Source: a virus
Reading direction: 5' to 3' (one strand)
DNA: 32,840 nucleotides
Virus genome (UHGV): UHGV-0259093
Position 1 is the first letter of the stretch. Each line of letters opens with the position of its first letter. Made by a program: the position numbers and the translations under genes. Under the pieces are notes generated by a model. The model was not told where the DNA came from, ran no database searches, and worked only from the letters and a program-made list of their open reading frames with translations. Positions 4,981-32,840 of the stretch are shown here, one piece after another.

Positions 4981-8671
<3,691 letters not shown>

Positions 8672-9913: not shown

Positions 9914-12097
9914 TTATGAGTTTCTTCTCTGAGAATCACGTACAGCCTGTACAACACTGTTTTGATATTTCTTTAGATTAGCCTGAAATTGTTTATCATC
10001 GCTCATGCCGTAGTTATACATAGGGGCATTTACGATAATATCGCCACCACCAGTACCGTTACCGTTGCTATCTTGATTATCTAAGAATTGAGTTAGTTTC
10101 TTATTAGCCTCTGGTTGTACTACACGTTCACCCGCTTTAAGTACAAATGACTTATCATTATAGCTTGCAGGAAGGTTATCTACGCCGCCGTGGAATTGAC
10201 CGCTATTAGATGCACCTTTTGCTGTACTGATAATACTCATACCCATACCTGCAATCTGTGCATATGCCGCTAGGTTCTGTGGGAAACCTAAAGATAGTGC
10301 ACTTGCTAACGCCTCTTGAATCTTCATAATGGTCATAGAGATGGTAATACCCTTCTGTACTGCATAGAACGCCTGAGCCGCCCCGGATGACTCACCAAAA
10401 GCCGCCGCCATACCATCACCGATCTGTGTCATTGCAGATTCAGAAGTAGATAGAATATTCATGTACTCTTGATTCTGAATCTGTAGTGCTTTAGTTGCGT
10501 ACTGTGCTGTAATTGCCGCCTTACGCTTTTCAAAAGATTCTTTATCCTGAATTAGCAATTCATTCTGTTTTAGAATTGCATCTCTTTCTTCTTGCATACG
10601 TTCCATATCGTAAGAAGTGGTATCAAGTCCTAAAGATTGATCAAGTTGATTTCCTAAGTAATTAGACTGTTGTTTATTTAGATCACCGTTCGCAAGTAAA
10701 GCATTTTGATCTAGTGTCTGTTGGTTAGGGTTACTATAACCAATCATCTGATTGATCATATTAAGTCTACCCGCCGCCCCTGCTGTTAGTTGGTCGTTTA
10801 GTAATTCCTGTAGTTTTACATCAGATAAGCCTAATGTTTTTGCACTCTTCTTAATTACGTTTACGATTTCGTTTTGCTGGCGTTTGAATTCTGCTAACTG
10901 ACGTTCATTAGTACCTTCAGTCTGATCTACAAGTACCTTATCTAATGCGGCCTGTGCTGCAATGCGTTGTTGTGCTGCTTTAGCCTGTTCGCTGGCTGCT
11001 GCTTTAGCCGCTGCCGCTGCTGCCTTAGCTGCTTTCTCTGCGGCCTTTTTAGGATCTTCTAATGGTGTCCATGCTGCGTTACCACGTGGGTTAGTTACTG
11101 TGGCTTTACCAGTTGGTAAATTACTATTCAGTACAGGCATGTTATTTTTATTCTTTTCGGCGTTAGCTTGATCAATTAATGCAAGTGCATCATCACCTAA
11201 GCCAAAACCTAAGCCCATTGATTTTAGAAGTTTACTAAAGCTGGCTGCTCGGTTCATTTGAGTTTCCCAAAATCCCTTTGCTGTATCACCTTCTTTCATT
11301 GCTGCAATGAATTCATTAGTAGCAGATACAATAGGGTTTAATGTTTCAATCAAATATTCCTGGCCTGTATCCAGTAGAGTACGTAGATTATTATCGAATT
11401 CTTCATAGGCTTTAGCTTGATCTTCACTAACTGCTACAGTTTGTTTTTTAATATTCGCCATTGCTTCAGAGTAACTATTAAATTCACTGAGTACTCCAGT
11501 TAGACGGGAACCATTACTAGCTACTGCTTCCATTGCATAGGTTATTTCTGCTTGTGTTTTTCCTGCATCTCTCATTTTATAATAGAGATCTACCATTGCT
11601 TCAATACCGCCATTGGCTTTACCTACATATTTTGTAAAGTCATTAACGTTTAAACCCATCTCTTTTACGACGGTAATAAACTCACCTGTACCCGCTGCGT
11701 ACCCCTCACCCATTTTATCGGATGTATCTTGCGAAATATCCGCTAGACCTTCTGCATCTATACCAGTTTGTCTAAATGCCTTTTGTAGTTTCTGTAGGTC
11801 GGTTACTGATATACCAGATCGTGTAGAAAGTTGATTTAATTCACGTACTAACCCGTTAACCTTAAGTACAAGTGCACCTACTGCCGTTCCTGCACCTAGT
11901 GCTACTGCGGAAATACCACCGATACCCGTTGAAAGTTTCCCGAATACTTGAGAAGTATTAGATGCAAAACCACCTAATGATCCCCCGGCTTTTTTACCGA
12001 ATGCATCTACTCTTTGTTCTGCCTGTTGTAGTGCTTTAGATAGTCCTGTACTGTCACCATCTATTTCTACTTTAATTTTTTCGTTCTTCCTTGCCAT
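9914..12097 (-). CDS. tail tape measure protein
   Basis: 727 aa, largely alpha-helical and Ala/Gln/Lys-rich with poly-Ala stretch (AAEKAAKAAAAAAKAAASEQAKAAQQ). Located directly after the frameshifted chaperone pair. Confidence 0.85.
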   Translation of the reverse strand: MARKNEKIKVEIDGDSTGLSKALQQAEQRVDAFGKKAGGSLGGFASNTSQVFGKLSTGIGGISAVALGAGTAVGALVLKVNGLVRELNQLSTRSGISVTDLQKLQKAFRQTGIDAEGLADISQDTSDKMGEGYAAGTGEFITVVKEMGLNVNDFTKYVGKANGGIEAMVDLYYKMRDAGKTQAEITYAMEAVASNGSRLTGVLSEFNSYSEAMANIKKQTVAVSEDQAKAYEEFDNNLRTLLDTGQEYLIETLNPIVSATNEFIAAMKEGDTAKGFWETQMNRAASFSKLLKSMGLGFGLGDDALALIDQANAEKNKNNMPVLNSNLPTGKATVTNPRGNAAWTPLEDPKKAAEKAAKAAAAAAKAAASEQAKAAQQRIAAQAALDKVLVDQTEGTNERQLAEFKRQQNEIVNVIKKSAKTLGLSDVKLQELLNDQLTAGAAGRLNMINQMIGYSNPNQQTLDQNALLANGDLNKQQSNYLGNQLDQSLGLDTTSYDMERMQEERDAILKQNELLIQDKESFEKRKAAITAQYATKALQIQNQEYMNILSTSESAMTQIGDGMAAAFGESSGAAQAFYAVQKGITISMTIMKIQEALASALSLGFPQNLAAYAQIAGMGMSIISTAKGASNSGQFHGGVDNLPASYNDKSFVLKAGERVVQPEANKKLTQFLDNQDSNGNGTGGGDIIVNAPMYNYGMSDDKQFQANLKKYQNSVVQAVRDSQRRNS

Positions 12098-23533: not shown

Positions 23534-24472
23534 ATGAAACACATAATCCAAACCAGAAGTGTTTTTAAGGATATCGAAGACTCTTTATTTAGTGAGTTGC
23601 ATTCAGCTAAGACAAGTATCAAAATCTGTGTTGCATGGATAAACTTTGAGCTTTTTGAAAATATATTATTATCTAAGGCTAAAGAAGGTGTTGAAGTTGA
23701 GATATTAGTTAATAATGATTATATCAATACAAAATTTCTTGATAAAATATCTGATAATATAAAACCATTAATTAATCTAATTAAAAACCCTATTAGTAAC
23801 CACTTAATGCATCATAAATTTTGTATCATTGATGATGAAGTTTTGATTACTGGCAGTTATAATTGGTCAAAAAGAGCACCATATCATTATGAAAATATAA
23901 TAATCATCCGTAATGATTTCAATCTAATAATGCAATTTAAACATGAGTTTGCAGATTTAAAATACATGGGTGCAATGCCAAGTACAGAATTTAATGCATT
24001 TAAAGTAACCAAAAATCTCAATAGATTTGTTGTTGGCACATATAGTTCATCTGTGGGGATATATGAAACCGTCACATTGCAGTTATGGGAAATTGATATT
24101 AACAACTTAACTTTTGAACGACATGGCGAAATGGATATCCCTTTCTTCAATTATTTATTAGATATTAATACTGATGATCATTATCTTATTGATGAAAAAG
24201 AAAGGTACATCGATCTATATGATCAAGAGCGTAGACAGATGGAGACTATCCAAAGTCATTTTAGAAGATTAAATTGTTCAATTCATGCTTATGGAACAGC
24301 AATAATAGCGAACGAGAGCGAATACCTTGAAGGTTATGAAGAGCCTATTCGTGTAATTCACTTCAATTGGATAGATATGCGATTAAGCAAAGTATTACCC
24401 TCTTCTTTGCCCGCAACTATGGAACTTGAAGGATTATGGCACGAAATATATGCTCCAAATGGATATATTTAA
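23534..24472 (+). CDS. phospholipase D-family (single HKD motif, Nuc-like) nuclease with an uncharacterised ~160-aa C-terminal domain
   Basis: HHKFCIIDDEVLITGSYNWSKRA is a canonical HxK(x4)D(x6)GSxN motif. RBS aagga 6 nt before the ATG. Markedly AT-rich. Confidence 0.75.
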   Translation: MKHIIQTRSVFKDIEDSLFSELHSAKTSIKICVAWINFELFENILLSKAKEGVEVEILVNNDYINTKFLDKISDNIKPLINLIKNPISNHLMHHKFCIIDDEVLITGSYNWSKRAPYHYENIIIIRNDFNLIMQFKHEFADLKYMGAMPSTEFNAFKVTKNLNRFVVGTYSSSVGIYETVTLQLWEIDINNLTFERHGEMDIPFFNYLLDINTDDHYLIDEKERYIDLYDQERRQMETIQSHFRRLNCSIHAYGTAIIANESEYLEGYEEPIRVIHFNWIDMRLSKVLPSSLPATMELEGLWHEIYAPNGYI

Positions 24473-24489
24473 ATAATATTCTATAATTA

Positions 24490-24864
24490 ATGAGGAACGG
24501 TATTATGTCTAATTATCCTATACCACTTAGCCTTGAATTTAATAGTCAAGATACTGCTAATATCATTTGTAGTTATCTAGAAAAAAATCATCAAGATTCT
24601 ATTTTAAAAACCATATTAAATATAGATTTGTCTTTTATTGATTATCGTGCACAATCTTCTAATTACTTTATAATTAATGACGTTGAATATATTGGAGATA
24701 ATAATTATATTTTATATTATAAAATAAACTACTACATTTATAATCTCTGTAAAGATATGGATATTGATGATGACTACGAGACTTCGATAAATTTTACATT
24801 GAATAATGGATTTTTAGTATTTGATATAATTGATTGTGAAAGAAATATATCAGATGAAATATAG
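24490..24864 (+). CDS. small acidic protein, partner of the PLD nuclease; likely start at ATG 24505
   Basis: RBS gagga 8 nt upstream of the second ATG (MSNYPIPL...). Asp/Glu-rich (DMDIDDDYETS, DIIDCERNISDEI). 32-nt gap after the PLD gene. Confidence 0.55.
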   Translation: MRNGIMSNYPIPLSLEFNSQDTANIICSYLEKNHQDSILKTILNIDLSFIDYRAQSSNYFIINDVEYIGDNNYILYYKINYYIYNLCKDMDIDDDYETSINFTLNNGFLVFDIIDCERNISDEI

Positions 24865-25388: not shown

Positions 25389-26114
25389 TTATTTCCTTAA
25401 TAACTTTTTTAATTCCTCAACTGTCTTCATTTCTTTTCCAATATGAATCATTGCATGACAGTTTGCACATAAAGGTATAAGATCTTCAATTGGGTCAATC
25501 TTATAGCGTTTACCAATAGTATGTAGTGGCACTATATGATGAACATGAATATAATTTTTTCCGTGACTTCCATACACTTCTTCAAAATTAAAACCACAGA
25601 CACCACAACTCAAACCATGTTTATCGATACATTCTTTTCTAGCCTTTGGATCTCTCTCATAGTACGTAGCAATCCTTTGATGCTTTTCACCTTCATAGTA
25701 TTCACTTTCTATTTCAGGTGTGAATGAATAGTAATCTTCATCGGTGGCATACCAATCTCCATCTTTTTTAGTAAGATATTTTCGTACTATTTTCTTTTCA
25801 AAATGTTTAATCCTAGCAGCACCATTTTCAGTTGTTTTCTCATGCCTAGTCTGGCTAAAGGTGAAAAGACTATACCCTTCATGTAAAATTTTATCTATGT
25901 GTTCGATAGATTGTGTATAACCATTTTTTTTGTGTCCATTTACATTTTCACGCCAACTGCTAGCCAAGATTAAAACTTTCTTACCATCATCTGATCTAAG
26001 ATCTTCCCAAGCTCCAAAAATTATTTTTTTGTTGATCTCATCAATAAATGACCAACTCCAGTTATCATTTTTACATGTAGCACCCAAAGAACGCATGAAC
26101 TCTGTTCGGGACAT
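25389..26114 (-). CDS. HNH-family endonuclease of restriction type (COG3183-like) with an uncharacterised N-terminal domain
   Basis: C-terminus ERDPKARKECIDKHGLSCGVCGF...IHVHHIVPL...DLIPLCANCHAMIH carries the Cys pair and His/Asn-type HNH motif of predicted HNH restriction endonucleases. Confidence 0.75.
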   Translation of the reverse strand: MSRTEFMRSLGATCKNDNWSWSFIDEINKKIIFGAWEDLRSDDGKKVLILASSWRENVNGHKKNGYTQSIEHIDKILHEGYSLFTFSQTRHEKTTENGAARIKHFEKKIVRKYLTKKDGDWYATDEDYYSFTPEIESEYYEGEKHQRIATYYERDPKARKECIDKHGLSCGVCGFNFEEVYGSHGKNYIHVHHIVPLHTIGKRYKIDPIEDLIPLCANCHAMIHIGKEMKTVEELKKLLRK

Positions 26115-26317: not shown

Positions 26318-27028
26318 ATGCTTAATCTCACTAAATGTAATTTACTTTTGATCGGCACTGTAATAACTCTATTACTGATAGCTATTCTTGTAGGTATAAA
26401 AATACTATTCTCCGATTCTAATCCAGATCTAGGCAGCTTAGCAGATTGGATCAGTTCTGTATCCGCAATAGGGACTCTTGGTGTTGCCTGGTTAGCTTAT
26501 AGTAAAGCTGATGACTACATTGACAAAAAAGCTTCGGAAAGAGGAATTGATATCCTTGTCAATATGGTAACTGAATCATTCGTTGCTTATTTCAACTCAC
26601 TAAATGAAACTAATTTCCATGCTTCAAAACTTGAAAATAAAATGATATTGATTGGCTTGGTTGATGAAAAAGTAGATTGCAATATTGAACTACAATCATT
26701 AAGAGAAAAAATCATAACTCTCTTCGAAAATAGTCATCAAATAGACAAAGATTTTATAAAAATGAAAATAATGAAAATATCAAAACCCAGTGATATTTTC
26801 TACGATCCAGTAACTAGCGATGATACATTGCAAGCGTTAAAATTAGCATTTCATAAACTGAACACTGAAATTTGTGAGAATGAAAATCAATACAACATTA
26901 ATAATGATTTACTTAGCGAAAATATCAACTTTATTAAAAACACTACCGAAAAGTTAGCCCATGATATTCGCAAACAGTTCTTTACCTCGCCGAATACTTA
27001 TAAAGATTATTTTGGAAATCTGTCTTAA
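26318..27028 (+). CDS. two-TM membrane protein of unknown function, paralog B of the 549-1289 protein
   Basis: N-terminal helix LLLIGTVITLLLIAILVGI followed by DLGSLADWISSVSAIGTLGVAWLAY. Perfect TATAAT at 26294-26299 upstream. Confidence 0.7.
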   Translation: MLNLTKCNLLLIGTVITLLLIAILVGIKILFSDSNPDLGSLADWISSVSAIGTLGVAWLAYSKADDYIDKKASERGIDILVNMVTESFVAYFNSLNETNFHASKLENKMILIGLVDEKVDCNIELQSLREKIITLFENSHQIDKDFIKMKIMKISKPSDIFYDPVTSDDTLQALKLAFHKLNTEICENENQYNINNDLLSENINFIKNTTEKLAHDIRKQFFTSPNTYKDYFGNLS

Positions 27029-27073
27029 ATTATACGCTATCAAATATTCCATCAACATAAACAAGGAAAGTAG

Positions 27074-27772
27074 ATGACTACTCTCACTAGAACTTATAAT
27101 TTACCAAATGAGCTAGTTGAACATTTTTCAAATAACATTGTCTATTTCGAAAAACTTTTGTCTAAGGATTTTTCTGACTTAAATGTTAATGTAGCACCAG
27201 AAGACATTAAGAAAATAGAAAAATCTTTCGAAGTATCACATAGAATACGTGATTTCGAAATCAATCTGTATTGGCAAAGACTGAACTTCCTTTGGGCCAT
27301 TACAGCATTGCTATTTGCTGGATGGGGAACATTGATCTTTAAAATCATCGAATTCAATGGAGGGGAAGCACCTTATATTATATTTGCCGCCTTATCATTT
27401 CTCTCACTTATAGGTGGGATTGTAACTATATTCACAAGCTTTATCATTGAGGCAGGTAAGCATTGGCAAAAGGTTTGGGAGTTTCATGTTCACGCTCTTG
27501 AACCTTTTGTATCAGGTCATTTATATGCAATTCAGTTTTCTTATAAAAATAAAAAAAAGGCATCTATAAGTAGAAGCGTAGAAACTTTCAATTATGCTTT
27601 GCTGTTTCTTTGGGCATGTTCAGCAGTATTCGCCGCAATCATCCCTTCACAAATAGGGAACGGTCTTGCAGGCATTATCCAATTAGTTATTTCTCTTCTT
27701 ATAGTTGGTGCTTTTGTTTATATACGCAACTCTGTTACTAAAAAGGAGTCTATTAAAATTCAGCTTGATTAA
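27074..27772 (+). CDS. four-TM integral membrane protein of unknown function
   Basis: Hydrophobic segments FLWAITALLFAGWGTLIF, YIIFAALSFLSLIGGIVTIFTSFII, FNYALLFLWACSAVFAAII, GIIQLVISLLIVGAFVYI. Follows paralog B by 45 nt. Confidence 0.65.
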   Translation: MTTLTRTYNLPNELVEHFSNNIVYFEKLLSKDFSDLNVNVAPEDIKKIEKSFEVSHRIRDFEINLYWQRLNFLWAITALLFAGWGTLIFKIIEFNGGEAPYIIFAALSFLSLIGGIVTIFTSFIIEAGKHWQKVWEFHVHALEPFVSGHLYAIQFSYKNKKKASISRSVETFNYALLFLWACSAVFAAIIPSQIGNGLAGIIQLVISLLIVGAFVYIRNSVTKKESIKIQLD

Positions 27773-28926: not shown

Positions 28927-29466
28927 TTATAGTGAATTTATGTATACCTTGATACTTCCTAAGCTAGTTCCATCCCTCATCATCTGGTGTACTTTCTTTT
29001 TTTCGTGCTGTGTTAGCTGTCGTGCATCACCCTTTAGTGCATACTTGATCATTACGCCGTGATTGTATGCCTCTAATAGTTCGTGTGCGGCCTTTACTGC
29101 AATGTTTCTATAATTATATAGCATTGACTTGTTTAGCGGCTTCTCGTTCCATTTCATGCGATTCTGGCGGCGAGTATTCACGGTATGTTGTACTTCCTCT
29201 ATTCCAATCATAGGACACTCTAAAACCAGCTTTAGGATCTCTAACCTACTAACCTTAGTACGGCTAGTGGTTCCTTCAAACTCTTTAGTAATGACTTCAT
29301 CAATAATATCTATTGCTTCTGGTGTAAACTGATTCAAAAACTTATAACCTGATAAAACGTTGTGTAAGTCTGTATTGTCGTATAATTTCTTTTTTCCTGC
29401 CATAATAAATACCTTTATAAAATGTGTTATGTTCCTTAATGGCGTTATGGTGTTTTCTCCCACCAT
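28927..29466 (-). CDS. hypothetical protein; probable start at ATG 29403 (MAGKKKLY...)
   Basis: aaagg RBS before the internal ATG. No motif recognised. Confidence 0.45.
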   Translation of the reverse strand: MVGENTITPLRNITHFIKVFIMAGKKKLYDNTDLHNVLSGYKFLNQFTPEAIDIIDEVITKEFEGTTSRTKVSRLEILKLVLECPMIGIEEVQHTVNTRRQNRMKWNEKPLNKSMLYNYRNIAVKAAHELLEAYNHGVMIKYALKGDARQLTQHEKKKVHQMMRDGTSLGSIKVYINSL

Positions 29467-29478
29467 AACGCCTTTTTA

Positions 29479-29964
29479 TTAGTTGTCTTTTGCAACCTTT
29501 GTATATGTCTGTCTATGTGTACTTCTATTGTACTTTTCATTCATGAATAGCGTGATATTGATACATGACATTCCACCAGTGTATAACGCCTTTACTTCAT
29601 CTTTTTGTACTGGTGTTAGACGTGGTTCATTTTGTTTCTTACGTACTGCCTTACATGAATTTTCACTATATGTAATCCACTGCAAATTAGAAATATTGTT
29701 GTCTCGTTTATCACTATTGATATTATCTACAACTAATCTTTTATTTGTTTGGGGTTTACTTAGAAATGTTTCTGCTACGAGTCTGTGTGTCTCTATCGGA
29801 TATGATTTAGATTTCCCATCCTCATAAACAGTTAAAGTAACTTTATAGTACCCATTACTTTTACTATAACTCTGTGTTAGATAATTACCCGTTTTAGTAT
29901 TGCGTACTTCTCCGTTACTACTTACTTCATAATTTACATATTGTGTTTGTTTCCATAATGTCAT
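29479..29964 (-). CDS. HNH homing endonuclease (NUMOD4-like N-terminus plus HNH_3 motif)
   Basis: YEVSSNGEVRNTKTGNYL and HRLVAETFLSKPQTNKRLVVDNINSDKRDNNISNLQWITYSEN are the hallmark motifs of phage-encoded HNH homing endonucleases. Confidence 0.8.
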   Translation of the reverse strand: MTLWKQTQYVNYEVSSNGEVRNTKTGNYLTQSYSKSNGYYKVTLTVYEDGKSKSYPIETHRLVAETFLSKPQTNKRLVVDNINSDKRDNNISNLQWITYSENSCKAVRKKQNEPRLTPVQKDEVKALYTGGMSCINITLFMNEKYNRSTHRQTYTKVAKDN

Positions 29965-30042
29965 TTTCTCTTCCTTGGACTATGGGGTACTGTGCAATCC
30001 TTGCAAGTACATGAGTAATACTTTTTACGATAGTATCAAACG

Positions 30043-30264
30043 TTATTGATTTTCGATTAGTAGTTTGAAAGTTGGAAAATTCATCCTTTCAAATAGTTCT
30101 GTATGTAGTTTACGTGTTGTGTGGTAATACTTCATATCTTTATAGAAATCAGAATGGATTACCGTATTACAGTACGTTTTACCATTTGGTTTAGATACAT
30201 CTGCAATTAGTACATTGTCGGTATCGGTACGTACATTGTTAAAATGGAATTCGCCAAAGTTCAT
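30043..30264 (-). CDS. small hypothetical protein, translationally coupled to the upstream RHH-like gene (toxin candidate)
   Basis: 73-aa ORF whose ATG overlaps the stop of the RHH-like ORF (TAATG arrangement). No motif recognised. Confidence 0.45.
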   Translation of the reverse strand: MNFGEFHFNNVRTDTDNVLIADVSKPNGKTYCNTVIHSDFYKDMKYYHTTRKLHTELFERMNFPTFKLLIENQ

Positions 30265-30419
30265 TACTTCTTTCCTCCTAAGATTACTTGTTGATTGAGT
30301 AGATATTGTAAAGCGGTACTCATTGATTTTGCTTTCCCTTCATCAATGATACTTTGTAGTACATTGTGTTGATGTTCGTTTAGACGTGCTGATACTTTGT
30401 ATTCTTTATTTTCTTTCAT
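30264..30419 (-). CDS. ribbon-helix-helix (CopG/Arc-like) small DNA-binding protein, 51 aa, below the ORF-track cutoff
   Basis: My translation MKENKEYKVSARLNEHQHNVLQSIIDEGKAKSMSTALQYLLNQQVILGGKK. Short beta-strand (KVSARL) followed by two helices fits the RHH layout. Confidence 0.45.
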   Translation of the reverse strand: MKENKEYKVSARLNEHQHNVLQSIIDEGKAKSMSTALQYLLNQQVILGGKK

Positions 30420-30467
30420 TGATTTTCCTTTTGTCTGCAAATCCTTAAAAATTTCATGTAAAAATCA

Positions 30468-30485
30468 CCCCGTAGGGATACGGGG
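30468..30485 (-). terminator. hairpin terminator for minus-strand transcription entering from the right
   Basis: Stem ccccgta / tacgggg with ggga loop; T-run follows on the minus strand. Confidence 0.4.
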
Positions 30486-30828
30486 TAATAACAAAATCTA
30501 AGGAGGAGGGATTTTAATATTCACACTTATTTATGAGATGAGAGCGGTCGCCCCCTTCATATACTATTATTATATCACATTTTGCCCATTTCGTCCCAGA
30601 AATCGACAAAATCAATTTTAAGTGGCTGATTTATATGTATTTATTACAGAAGTCGCGATTATCGCCATAATGCATAAGAAGAGATATACTAAAAATGCAA
30701 TGTATAGATAAACTATCCACCCGGTGATCATAAACACCATACCTACCACTAATACAAAAGCACTGACTAACCAATCTAACATAGTTTCCCCTTATAATTA
30801 TTATGTACAATTATTTATCAATAAGACG

Positions 30829-30867
30829 AAAAAAAGCCCCGTAATGCGACATCAATCGATACGGGGC
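30829..30867 (-). terminator. rho-independent terminator downstream of the serine recombinase gene
   Basis: Stem gccccgta (30836-30843) / tacggggc (30860-30867), followed on the minus strand by seven T (plus 30829-30835 aaaaaaa), ~75 nt after the recombinase stop. Confidence 0.5.
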
Positions 30868-30941
30868 ATAACAACTACTACTATATTATTTTTTGTTTAC
30901 GGTATTTCTAATCTACTTTCTAGGCCAAAATAAATGCCCGT

Positions 30942-32840
30942 CTAGATCTGGTCTATCCGATAACGCTCTATGAACTCTTTACGTGTTAAACCAGTCGATT
31001 CTAATGCAGTGGCTATATCCTTTGGAACTCGACCATTCAAGGCAATACTATATGTATTGCCTTCATACACAATGTCTACTCGATCATACTTTCCGGTATT
31101 AGGCCAGAATGAAGCCCCACTTATTTCACTATAACCAACCACTTCTAACATCTCATTAGCAGTATTGAACAGATCTAAATAACTTTGTTCAATTTTATCA
31201 AGTTGTTCCACTGCTTTATTAAATAATGGCAGATTGCTAGTGGTAAGAAATCCTTCATCTCTGATACTTACATTATCAACAGAAGAAAATTCAACTTTAA
31301 ACGCCCAATGTGGTTTTCTATCAGTTCCACCAAAAACTAACCATTCATCTTTAAAATGATACTTTATTTTTATCGTTATACACCCATCAGTTTTATCAAC
31401 TATAACACTTTCAATAATAGAACTAATTACTTTCCTTATTTTATTTCTATCCGTATCCTGCATATTTGTAAAAACCGCCCACTGAATAAGAATCATAAAT
31501 TCATTTATATCGACTTCTAGAGATCCTTTACCTTTCAGTGAATATAAGCGTTCTTTTAACTTATCAACTTCCAGAACAGTCTTTTTACGTTCCATATCAA
31601 ACGCATTTAGTTGAACTGCTAACGCACTAACATTAGGAGCAATTGCTATTGCTTGAGCCATGTTTGTTATGCGAGATTCCAGATCAGTTATCAACGTTTC
31701 TTTTCTACTGAGGTCTTCTTCTATCACAGTTGTGTCAATACCATCTTTTAGTCTCTTATTCATGTAACCGATCAGTAGTGAAATGATCGTACAGTGTTCA
31801 ACTAATTGTGCTGATATAGACCAGCCAGAACAGTTTTTTTGTAAGTGAACCCCATTAGTACAAATATAGCGAGCACTGCCATGATTCATGAAAGAATGCA
31901 TAGTTCCTCCACACTTGCTACACCGTAACACCTGCAACCCTGATAACAATTTAATTTCTTCTACTTTGTCTTTCTTAGCCTTGAAGTTGTTTTGCTGCTT
32001 ACGTTCAGCCAAGGTTAAATACTCTGCTTCATCTTTGCATAACCATGGATAGTAGTTATCAAGTTTGTAAGTAGCACCACCAGCATTGATAGTCCTTTCA
32101 CCAATCAACGCCCGATTATCACGCATCTTTTTCAATACCTGATAATCCCATTCTTTACCCTTTAAACCATTAGGATATTTTTTATCGAGATGACGCTTTA
32201 CTGTATAGATGCCATTCCCATCTAAAAACATGTCTATAGCTTCGCGAGCGATACTCCAGTAAACGGGATGTTCTTTTACTGCTTCATATTGCGAACCTGA
32301 ATCATCTATCCAAAATGGATGGCGACCAACTGACTTAATGTTTACTGGCAACCCTGCTTTATGACGTTCGACCAAGGCAACAACATTGCCTATGGTCCTG
32401 TTAGATTTCGTTTCTGATTCTTCATTGCCACGGATAAACATCAGAATAGAAATCATCAGATCAGTAGGGTTTTGTCTGATGGATTCTCTGTTATAGACCT
32501 TCCGATCCATTCCTGTGACAATCGTTAGCCCTAAACCAATCAATTCAAGGAATAAACGAAGTGCTTCATCCACCTGATCGCGTGATAGTCGGTCGAGGTT
32601 TTCACAGTAAAGCCAAGAGTCAGACGGTATAGCATTATTTTTTACGGCGTCTATGAAGTCACCCAACTTACCCGCCCTATTTTTTCCCCTGTAAGCACTC
32701 GTGCCAGGTTCCAAAATTTCAACCATTTCAAGCCCCGCTTCTTCAGCATAGGCTTTCGCTGCCGCTACCTGCCTGTTCTTGGTTGTTCCTTTTTCTTGGC
32801 GATCACTTGACCACCTGATATAGCTATAAAGTTGCGGCAT
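30942..32840 (-). CDS. large serine recombinase (phage integrase type)
   Basis: N-terminal YIRWSSDRQ with catalytic Ser and LDRLSRD typical of the resolvase domain. 632 aa, Cys-rich zinc-ribbon-like segment (CSKCGG...CTNG). ATG is the last three bases of the window. Confidence 0.9.
   Translation of the reverse strand: MPQLYSYIRWSSDRQEKGTTKNRQVAAAKAYAEEAGLEMVEILEPGTSAYRGKNRAGKLGDFIDAVKNNAIPSDSWLYCENLDRLSRDQVDEALRLFLELIGLGLTIVTGMDRKVYNRESIRQNPTDLMISILMFIRGNEESETKSNRTIGNVVALVERHKAGLPVNIKSVGRHPFWIDDSGSQYEAVKEHPVYWSIAREAIDMFLDGNGIYTVKRHLDKKYPNGLKGKEWDYQVLKKMRDNRALIGERTINAGGATYKLDNYYPWLCKDEAEYLTLAERKQQNNFKAKKDKVEEIKLLSGLQVLRCSKCGGTMHSFMNHGSARYICTNGVHLQKNCSGWSISAQLVEHCTIISLLIGYMNKRLKDGIDTTVIEEDLSRKETLITDLESRITNMAQAIAIAPNVSALAVQLNAFDMERKKTVLEVDKLKERLYSLKGKGSLEVDINEFMILIQWAVFTNMQDTDRNKIRKVISSIIESVIVDKTDGCITIKIKYHFKDEWLVFGGTDRKPHWAFKVEFSSVDNVSIRDEGFLTTSNLPLFNKAVEQLDKIEQSYLDLFNTANEMLEVVGYSEISGASFWPNTGKYDRVDIVYEGNTYSIALNGRVPKDIATALESTGLTRKEFIERYRIDQI

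Follow-up and report, generated by a model that had tools for sequence, protein, structure and literature searches.

The window analysed here, the whole 32,840-nt stretch of the virus genome UHGV-0259093, is a low-GC siphovirus-like prophage which carries a large serine integrase and adjoins rimO. Its mean G+C content is about 36% and varies between 32 and 42% across sections of 2 kb. It harbors structural genes for a large terminase, portal, major head protein, tape measure and tail fibre as well as lysis genes for a lysozyme and a holin. Read along the minus strand, the integrase gene with its own terminator is followed by a gene for a small hydrophobic protein, a promoter-like element, a leader and a hairpin. 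Behind the hairpin lie a 51-aa gene, a 73-aa gene, an HNH endonuclease gene, a 158/179-aa gene and further small genes, and the packaging, head, tail and lysis genes come last. In detail, the locus comprises the following features:

30942..32840, minus strand: large serine recombinase (prophage integrase) of 632 aa, matching PHROG 95 (integrase, E 1.6e-45); Resolvase and Recombinase Pfam families are recorded for the same protein.
30618..30782, minus strand: gene for a 54-aa hydrophobic (membrane-type) protein, located behind the integrase gene and ahead of the leader, with synteny across all lineages.
30569..30598, minus strand: conserved promoter-like element composed of a TGGGACGAA box (30598-30590) and a TGATATAAT extended -10 (30577-30569).
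30490..30562, minus strand: leader from the promoter-like element to the hairpin, containing a ATAAATAAGTGTGAATA box (30534-30518) and a pyrimidine CCCTCCTCCTTAGATT box (30510-30495).
30464..30489, minus strand: GC-rich hairpin with T-run, resembling an intrinsic terminator and separated from the downstream 51-aa ATG by 44 nt.
30264..30419, minus strand: 51-aa gene, stop included (ATG 30419-30417, TAA 30266-30264), the first gene of the early operon.
30274..30279, minus strand: AGGAGG ribosome binding site (RBS) of the 73-aa gene, read from the sequence, within the 3' end of the 51-aa gene.
30043..30264, minus strand: 73-aa gene, stop included (ATG 30264-30262, TAA 30045-30043).
29479..29964, minus strand: NUMOD4-HNH homing-type endonuclease gene, directly downstream of the 51-aa/73-aa pair.

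The two small open reading frames which the initial annotation had proposed are both read on the minus strand, the stop of the first and the start of the second overlapping by one base (TAATG). The 51-aa protein has the sequence MKENKEYKVSARLNEHQHNVLQSIIDEGKAKSMSTALQYLLNQQVILGGKK and a net charge of about +3. Its gene is preceded by a modest RBS (AAGGA, six nt ahead of the ATG), while the AGGAGG of the 73-aa gene is a strong site located nine nt ahead of its start codon. Both reading frames are intact across relatives at 55-77% nucleotide identity, and pairwise dN/dS ratios range from 0.12 to 0.70 for the 51-aa gene and from 0.20 to 0.49 for the 73-aa gene. Both are real genes under purifying selection and not chance open reading frames.

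The prophage family is widespread in Enterobacterales and has no close isolated phage in GenBank. Neither the region nor the two proteins gave a match by megablast and tblastn against 50,697 phage records; among sequenced phages, the best-matching terminase shows 36% identity and the best-matching capsid about 30%. In complete E. coli genomes, matches were limited to fragments of 50-78 nt, and an Rfam scan of positions 29900-31000 returned chance-level matches only. In contigs encoding an identical 73-aa protein the element lies beside rimO, both in surroundings of E. coli type and in Pseudocitrobacter faecalis, of which strain DSM 27453 has an identical 51-aa/73-aa pair. A literature search yielded only the general mention that some integrative elements target rimO. 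No part of the window was recognised as encoding a CI-type or other lysogeny repressor.

Several further properties of the prophage were recorded. It contains three homing-endonuclease-type genes of the NUMOD4-HNH, HNH and GIY-YIG SegE-like types (29479-29964, 25389-26114 and 2539-2976, all on the minus strand), which is uncommon in a temperate element of this size (33 kb). Two cassettes (23534-24864 and 26318-27772) are located on the plus strand, every other gene being on the minus strand. One of these opposite-strand cassettes consists of a PLD-like nuclease with weak PADLOC matches to MkoC/DpdK/DrmC and a 124-aa protein, and the other of a 236-aa protein and an 8xMP membrane protein; both are likely defence or moron genes expressed in the lysogen. 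[quoted passage not shown] The true start of this frame is probably the ATG at 29403, giving 158 aa in accordance with the calls in relatives.

The 51-aa gene is preceded by a non-coding unit which is conserved throughout the family. In all lineages, TTGGGAC and TATAAT are found upstream of the hairpin with a spacing of 18-19 nt, and this promoter-like pattern is present once in the window at zero mismatches. Its positions form invariant columns in a five-sequence alignment (A3) and in the printed lineage sequences. A leader of 75-115 nt separates TATAAT from the hairpin, which in the window has an 11-bp stem (-16.1 kcal/mol); the hairpin placed at 30468-30485 by the initial annotation falls within this stem and its T-run (30489..30464). 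An equivalent hairpin exists in all seven lineages compared, which preserve the structure (-12 to -19 kcal/mol) despite differing stem sequences. Consensus folding of the leader revealed the terminator hairpin as the only shared element. Equivalents of the whole unit were located at 30598-30464 in the window, at 9790-9965 in L013 and at 7660-7800 in L021, as well as in L024, L025 and L028. It had been supposed from the hairpin that the pair possesses a promoter of its own; the 44 nt from the hairpin to the 51-aa ATG, however, contain no sigma-70-like site. Because the promoter-like element is located upstream of the hairpin, the pair appears to be reached by read-through of the conserved terminator and would be transcribed from this element, about 150 nt upstream, instead of from an own promoter. 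The conservation of the unit suggests control by attenuation or antitermination, or alternatively the production of a terminated RNA of about 100 nt.

Other sequence elements of this region were inspected as well. The motif ATAAATAANTGTNNATA occurs exactly twice in the 32.8 kb, at 30818-30802 and 30534-30518, and thus flanks the gene of the 54-aa membrane protein. The upstream copy (TTGATAAATAATTGTACATAATA) is identical in 22 of 23 positions to a leader element of Citrobacter relatives, and the motif may be a promoter or an operator. Together with an inverted repeat around TGGGAC, it belongs to the candidate operator repeats. None of these could be tied to the 51-aa protein, and no operator was identified for it; the TGGGAC box is constant while the putative DNA-reading strand residues of the 51-aa family vary. 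A reading of TGGGACGAAATGGGCA as a sigma-54 promoter was discarded since the GC at -12 is not conserved, and a small antisense open reading frame in the leader was rejected as a coding gene, its length being 3, 6, 9, about 36 or 51 codons depending on the lineage.

Relatives of the 51-aa protein, two by word-indexed search and 48 by profile search, all derive from Enterobacterales, with Citrobacter, Enterobacter, Raoultella, Kluyvera, Pantoea, Pectobacterium, E. albertii and Salmonella as hosts. In an assembly collection, the Salmonella variant appears in 308 index blocks and the E. albertii variant in 427. Two members of the family are labelled as Arc/MetJ-type or CopG-family (RHH/CopG) by their database sources. 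An alignment of 40 sequences gave the consensus MKExKxHxVxVKLNDxQxxLLxKLIxxGKAKTxASAIQYLINQxxILGxK, in which a strand-like segment of alternating polar and hydrophobic residues (KVSARL) is followed by two helices joined by a G-x-x-x-S/T turn.

This resembles the layout of a ribbon-helix-helix (RHH) protein, as the initial annotation had suggested, and for the family the suggestion is moderately supported. The Pfam model RHH_1 (PF01402) matches 13 of the 40 members with a best E-value of 2.6e-4, all of them below the gathering score; members checked individually reached 14-18.5 bits against a cutoff of 20.5 bits and covered at most positions 2-37 of the 39 in the model. In a profile-profile comparison (hhalign) with seven classic RHH proteins (Arc, Mnt, CopG, ParD, RelB, NikR and CcdA, whose sequences were entered by hand), the family profile scored a probability of 78% and an E-value of 1.8e-5. 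The alignment sets KVSARL on the β-strand of Arc and covers residues 4-41, leaving about ten residues over. The window protein taken alone, on the other hand, has no match in Pfam (E<=1), PHROGs, NCBIfam, PADLOC or the PDB sequences, and its AlphaFold2 monomer model, built from an alignment of three sequences, comprises helices at residues 5-26 and 33-46 and no strand, with a pLDDT of 66 for residues 1-10. A fold search with this model was uninformative, as a helical hairpin matches anything.

The strandless model leaves room for a different reading, in which the 51-aa protein would be a protein-binding or structural factor made of two helices, such as a partner of the replication proteins, and its resemblance to RHH proteins would be a coincidence. 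The sub-threshold scores of all RHH_1 matches and a PDB profile search with the family that brought up no RHH chain point in the same direction. However, the model is a monomer predicted from three sequences, whereas the strand of RHH proteins forms only in the dimer. Furthermore, the order of KVSARL segment, helix, turn and second helix is kept across 40 diverse members, several of which independently match the same Pfam family, near full length at most, and hhalign agrees with them. We regard a non-RHH protein as improbable. The RHH fold is accordingly rated as probable and not as proven, given that its strand exists only in the dimer and the model is a three-sequence monomer, and membership of the 51-aa protein in the RHH superfamily is likewise probable.

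A comparison of nine lineages revealed a common gene order, in which a serine integrase (521-632 aa) is followed by a small membrane protein (54-63 aa), the promoter-like box, the leader, the hairpin, the RHH gene and helicase/primase-like genes. The elements are integrated at four sites, at or next to rimO, ybhA/modC, msyB and yegD, and the RHH gene is always located within about 0.6 kb downstream of the serine integrase gene. The helicase/primase-like protein of 645-951 aa, with visible Walker motifs and weak matches to ResIII/DEAD and CyRepA1, occupies in relatives the position of the HNH gene in the window. A locus search with a 5-sequence alignment found the genomes of only two species.

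The 73-aa family was detected by HMM in window-type loci, L001, L019/20, L021 and L022a only. In Salmonella, the RHH gene is followed by an 82-aa gene, which is probably a distant homologue (hhalign probability 79%). A 73-aa-type gene directly follows the RHH gene in all five lineages possessing one. The RHH gene is found without it in Citrobacter (L013-L018), Mangrovibacter (L024), E. albertii (L025-L027) and the second L022 copy. An HNH gene lies 85 nt behind the RHH gene in Citrobacter, the helicase gene follows directly in E. albertii, and other genes are found in Mangrovibacter. In the second element of contig L022 a different 72-aa gene is present at this place; the 72-aa gene of L021 was discarded as a paralogue of the 73-aa family because hhalign gave a probability of only 12%. 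From this distribution the RHH gene is the constant and the 73-aa gene the optional component, and both families are confined to one fixed position in one prophage family, unlike a mobile two-gene cassette.

Contig L022 (4471-5767) joins two related elements, either as a hybrid or in tandem. Its helicase gene breaks off after about 110 codons, where it runs into the 3' end of an L021-type integrase gene, behind which a second membrane-protein gene, an RHH gene, the 72-aa gene and a primase set are located. The 51-aa protein encoded on L022 is 98% identical to that of the window and stands beside a clearly different integrase (589 vs 632 aa, with a visibly diverged sequence).

The 73-aa protein could not be placed in any known toxin family, as had been stated before, neither by sequence nor by predicted structure. 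Searches of Pfam, PHROGs, PADLOC and NCBIfam returned no toxin, antitoxin, defence or other family. A word-indexed search found three relatives and exhaustive HMMER against 1.84 billion representatives two more (46-47% identity), so that only five true relatives were found among 1.8-5.8 billion proteins. The AlphaFold2 model predicts a β3-α3 fold (pLDDT 88.5), for which a fold search gave no match. A local similarity to the toxin MqsR of the RelE superfamily, centred on SDFYKxMxxY (SDFYK-M--Y), was followed up: pairwise hhalign yielded a probability of 75% over 41 columns with 39% identity, and in the PDB-wide profile search MqsR appeared with an E-value of 0.65 among evidently random matches. 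An MqsR-like toxin was rejected, as this score is at noise level given the size of the database. Moreover, the matched stretch is predicted as strand-strand-helix here, compared with helix-helix-strand in MqsR, and corresponds to MqsR residues 21-64 only. It leaves out the C-terminal strands which bear most of the catalytic residues, and the C-terminal third of MqsR would have no counterpart in the 73-aa protein.

At the DNA level, the window and the E. coli variant L001 do not differ in the RHH gene or in codons 1-23 of the 73-aa gene, share about 60% identity over codons 24-62 (30195-30078 vs L001 10070-10186) and agree fully again over the last 11 codons. The divergent stretch inside the gene is a mosaic patch, as is typical for accessory genes of phages. 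The gene further downstream also differs, with HNH and 158-aa genes in the window vs a gene for a 645-aa helicase-like protein in L001. A triple ACAATGTAC repeat was treated as a coincidence because it falls on N-V codons of the coding sequence and is not conserved in Citrobacter.

Taken together, we consider it somewhat more probable than otherwise that the pair consists of an Arc/CopG-like RHH regulator of the early operon and an accessory orphan early protein, and is not a toxin-antitoxin (TA) pair. The 51-aa protein would be a minimal RHH protein of the Arc/CopG size class, encoded by the conserved first gene of an early operon which includes replication genes. We infer that as a dimer or tetramer it most likely binds operator DNA and represses early or neighbouring promoters, including its own by autoregulation. 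Transcription would have to read through the conserved terminator hairpin in order to reach the pair. The 73-aa protein would be an accessory early product expressed from its strong AGGAGG site, possibly also by coupling through TAATG, and not a toxin held by the 51-aa protein; any function assigned to it is a guess.

Comparable repressors stand at the head of known operons, Arc in arc-ant of phage P22 and CopG in copG-repB of plasmid pMV158. The immI region of P22 combines the arc-ant operon with the antisense RNA sar. Like Arc, the 51-aa protein would be an RHH-domain-only protein of about 50 aa, and it is encoded first in a phage operon with a second gene directly behind it, and the complementarity of the window leader to the RBS region of this second gene recalls sar over the RBS of ant. 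The differences are that no direct sequence similarity to Arc was detected, the profile-profile match being to a mixed RHH set only; that the partner is a 73-aa orphan instead of a 300-aa antirepressor, and a Mnt-like partner is missing; and that the complementary RNA lies in the leader of the same strand, in contrast to the opposite strand for sar. The copG-repB operon of pMV158 is accompanied by the antisense RNA II. CopG (RepA) is similarly minimal (45 vs 51 aa) and heads the operon of a replication protein, just as genes for helicase/primase-like proteins of 645-951 aa follow the RHH gene in the relatives of the window. The predicted design, an RHH autorepressor plus an RNA that sets the level of a replication protein, would be alike as well. 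In contrast, the window belongs to a phage and not to a rolling-circle plasmid, operator and repression are here predicted only, and in the window copy the place held by the helicase gene in relatives is taken by the genes for an HNH endonuclease and a 158-aa protein.

The leader offers a lead of its own. The RBS region of the 73-aa gene (30285-30273) finds its complement, with one mismatch in 13 nt, in the pyrimidine CCCTCCTCCTTAGATT box (30510-30495), and the reverse complement of this box resembles a translation-initiation region with RBS and start codon. In relatives, leader boxes match the starts of downstream genes, with 12 nt exact at the primase/helicase gene of L021 (7735-7760 vs 8440-8460), 10 nt exact at the helicase gene of E. 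albertii L025 (vs 6190-6210) and 9 nt exact at a 161-aa gene of Citrobacter L013 (vs 10855-10875). An ungapped complementarity test with shuffling in six lineages gave p = 0.03, 0.004 and 0.006 in three of them and 0.88, 0.14 and 0.25 in the others. With this mixed significance, the complementarity is an unexplained lead.

It could fit a circuit in which the early operon of this prophage family, devoid of a recognisable CI-type repressor, is controlled by RNA in the manner of P4 CI RNA, P1 c4 or RNA II of pMV158. Under such control, the constitutive-looking promoter may produce a leader that stops at the conserved hairpin after about 100 nt, the pyrimidine box may pair with downstream starts (that of the 73-aa gene, and those of helicase/primase genes in relatives), and the RHH and 73-aa proteins may be the first products once the block is lifted. 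We give this circuit a small chance.

Slightly smaller still is the chance that the 51-aa protein, the 73-aa protein or both act in excision as a recombination directionality factor (RDF) for the adjacent serine integrase, which would be produced only once the early operon is turned on. RDFs of serine integrases include very small proteins of early operons such as TP901-1 Orf7 and SPβ SprB, and in phages P2 and 186 the first early gene product (Cox and Apl, respectively) is both repressor and excisionase. The position of the RHH gene, within about 0.6 kb of the integrase gene and at the head of an operon expected to fire on induction, would suit such a role. However, the 98% identical 51-aa protein of L022 stands beside a divergent integrase, and the 73-aa gene is missing in lineages which should still need excision. 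Similarity to a known RDF was not found either; RDFs share no common sequence signature and are too diverse for this to carry much weight.

The least probable reading, and one we consider very unlikely, is that of a type II TA or abortive-infection pair, in which the 51-aa RHH protein would neutralise a 73-aa toxin and also autoregulate the operon. The initial annotation had proposed a TA or small repressor pair, and the RHH_1 matches and the hhalign result favour the RHH/repressor half of that proposal. The layout is the classic one of RelB, ParD, CcdA and DinJ, with the RHH gene first, a small partner second, small sizes and a one-base overlap of stop and start. The 73-aa-type gene moreover directly follows the RHH gene wherever it exists, and the MqsR similarity, at noise level, would point to a RelE-family toxin. 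Nevertheless, of five defining features four are lacking, namely a toxin family or fold, joint inheritance, a neutralising region and an own promoter. No toxin, antitoxin or defence family was matched, and the partner is dispensable, being absent from four of the nine lineages, all of which keep the RHH gene. Known RHH antitoxins have about 70-95 aa including a toxin-binding tail; the 51-aa protein would be a DNA-binding domain only, without a C-terminal extension. The downstream gene has the stronger Shine-Dalgarno sequence, the opposite of the usual antitoxin excess, and both families stay at one fixed locus of one prophage family instead of spreading as a cassette. Membership in a TA family is thus not supported.

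With the Arc/CopG-like regulator as the preferred reading, the feature is an ordinary kind of regulator in an uncharacterised prophage family, which occurs in E. coli, Salmonella, Citrobacter, Enterobacter, Pectobacterium and relatives. A false TA candidate is removed, and a likely role is assigned to a 48-member family of unannotated proteins of 50 aa which mark the start of the early operon. In addition, the conserved unit of promoter, leader and terminator provides a starting point for studying how these prophages, in which no repressor is recognisable, keep their lytic genes silent. RNA-based control, if true, would represent a new circuit of immunity and replication control for temperate phages of Enterobacterales.
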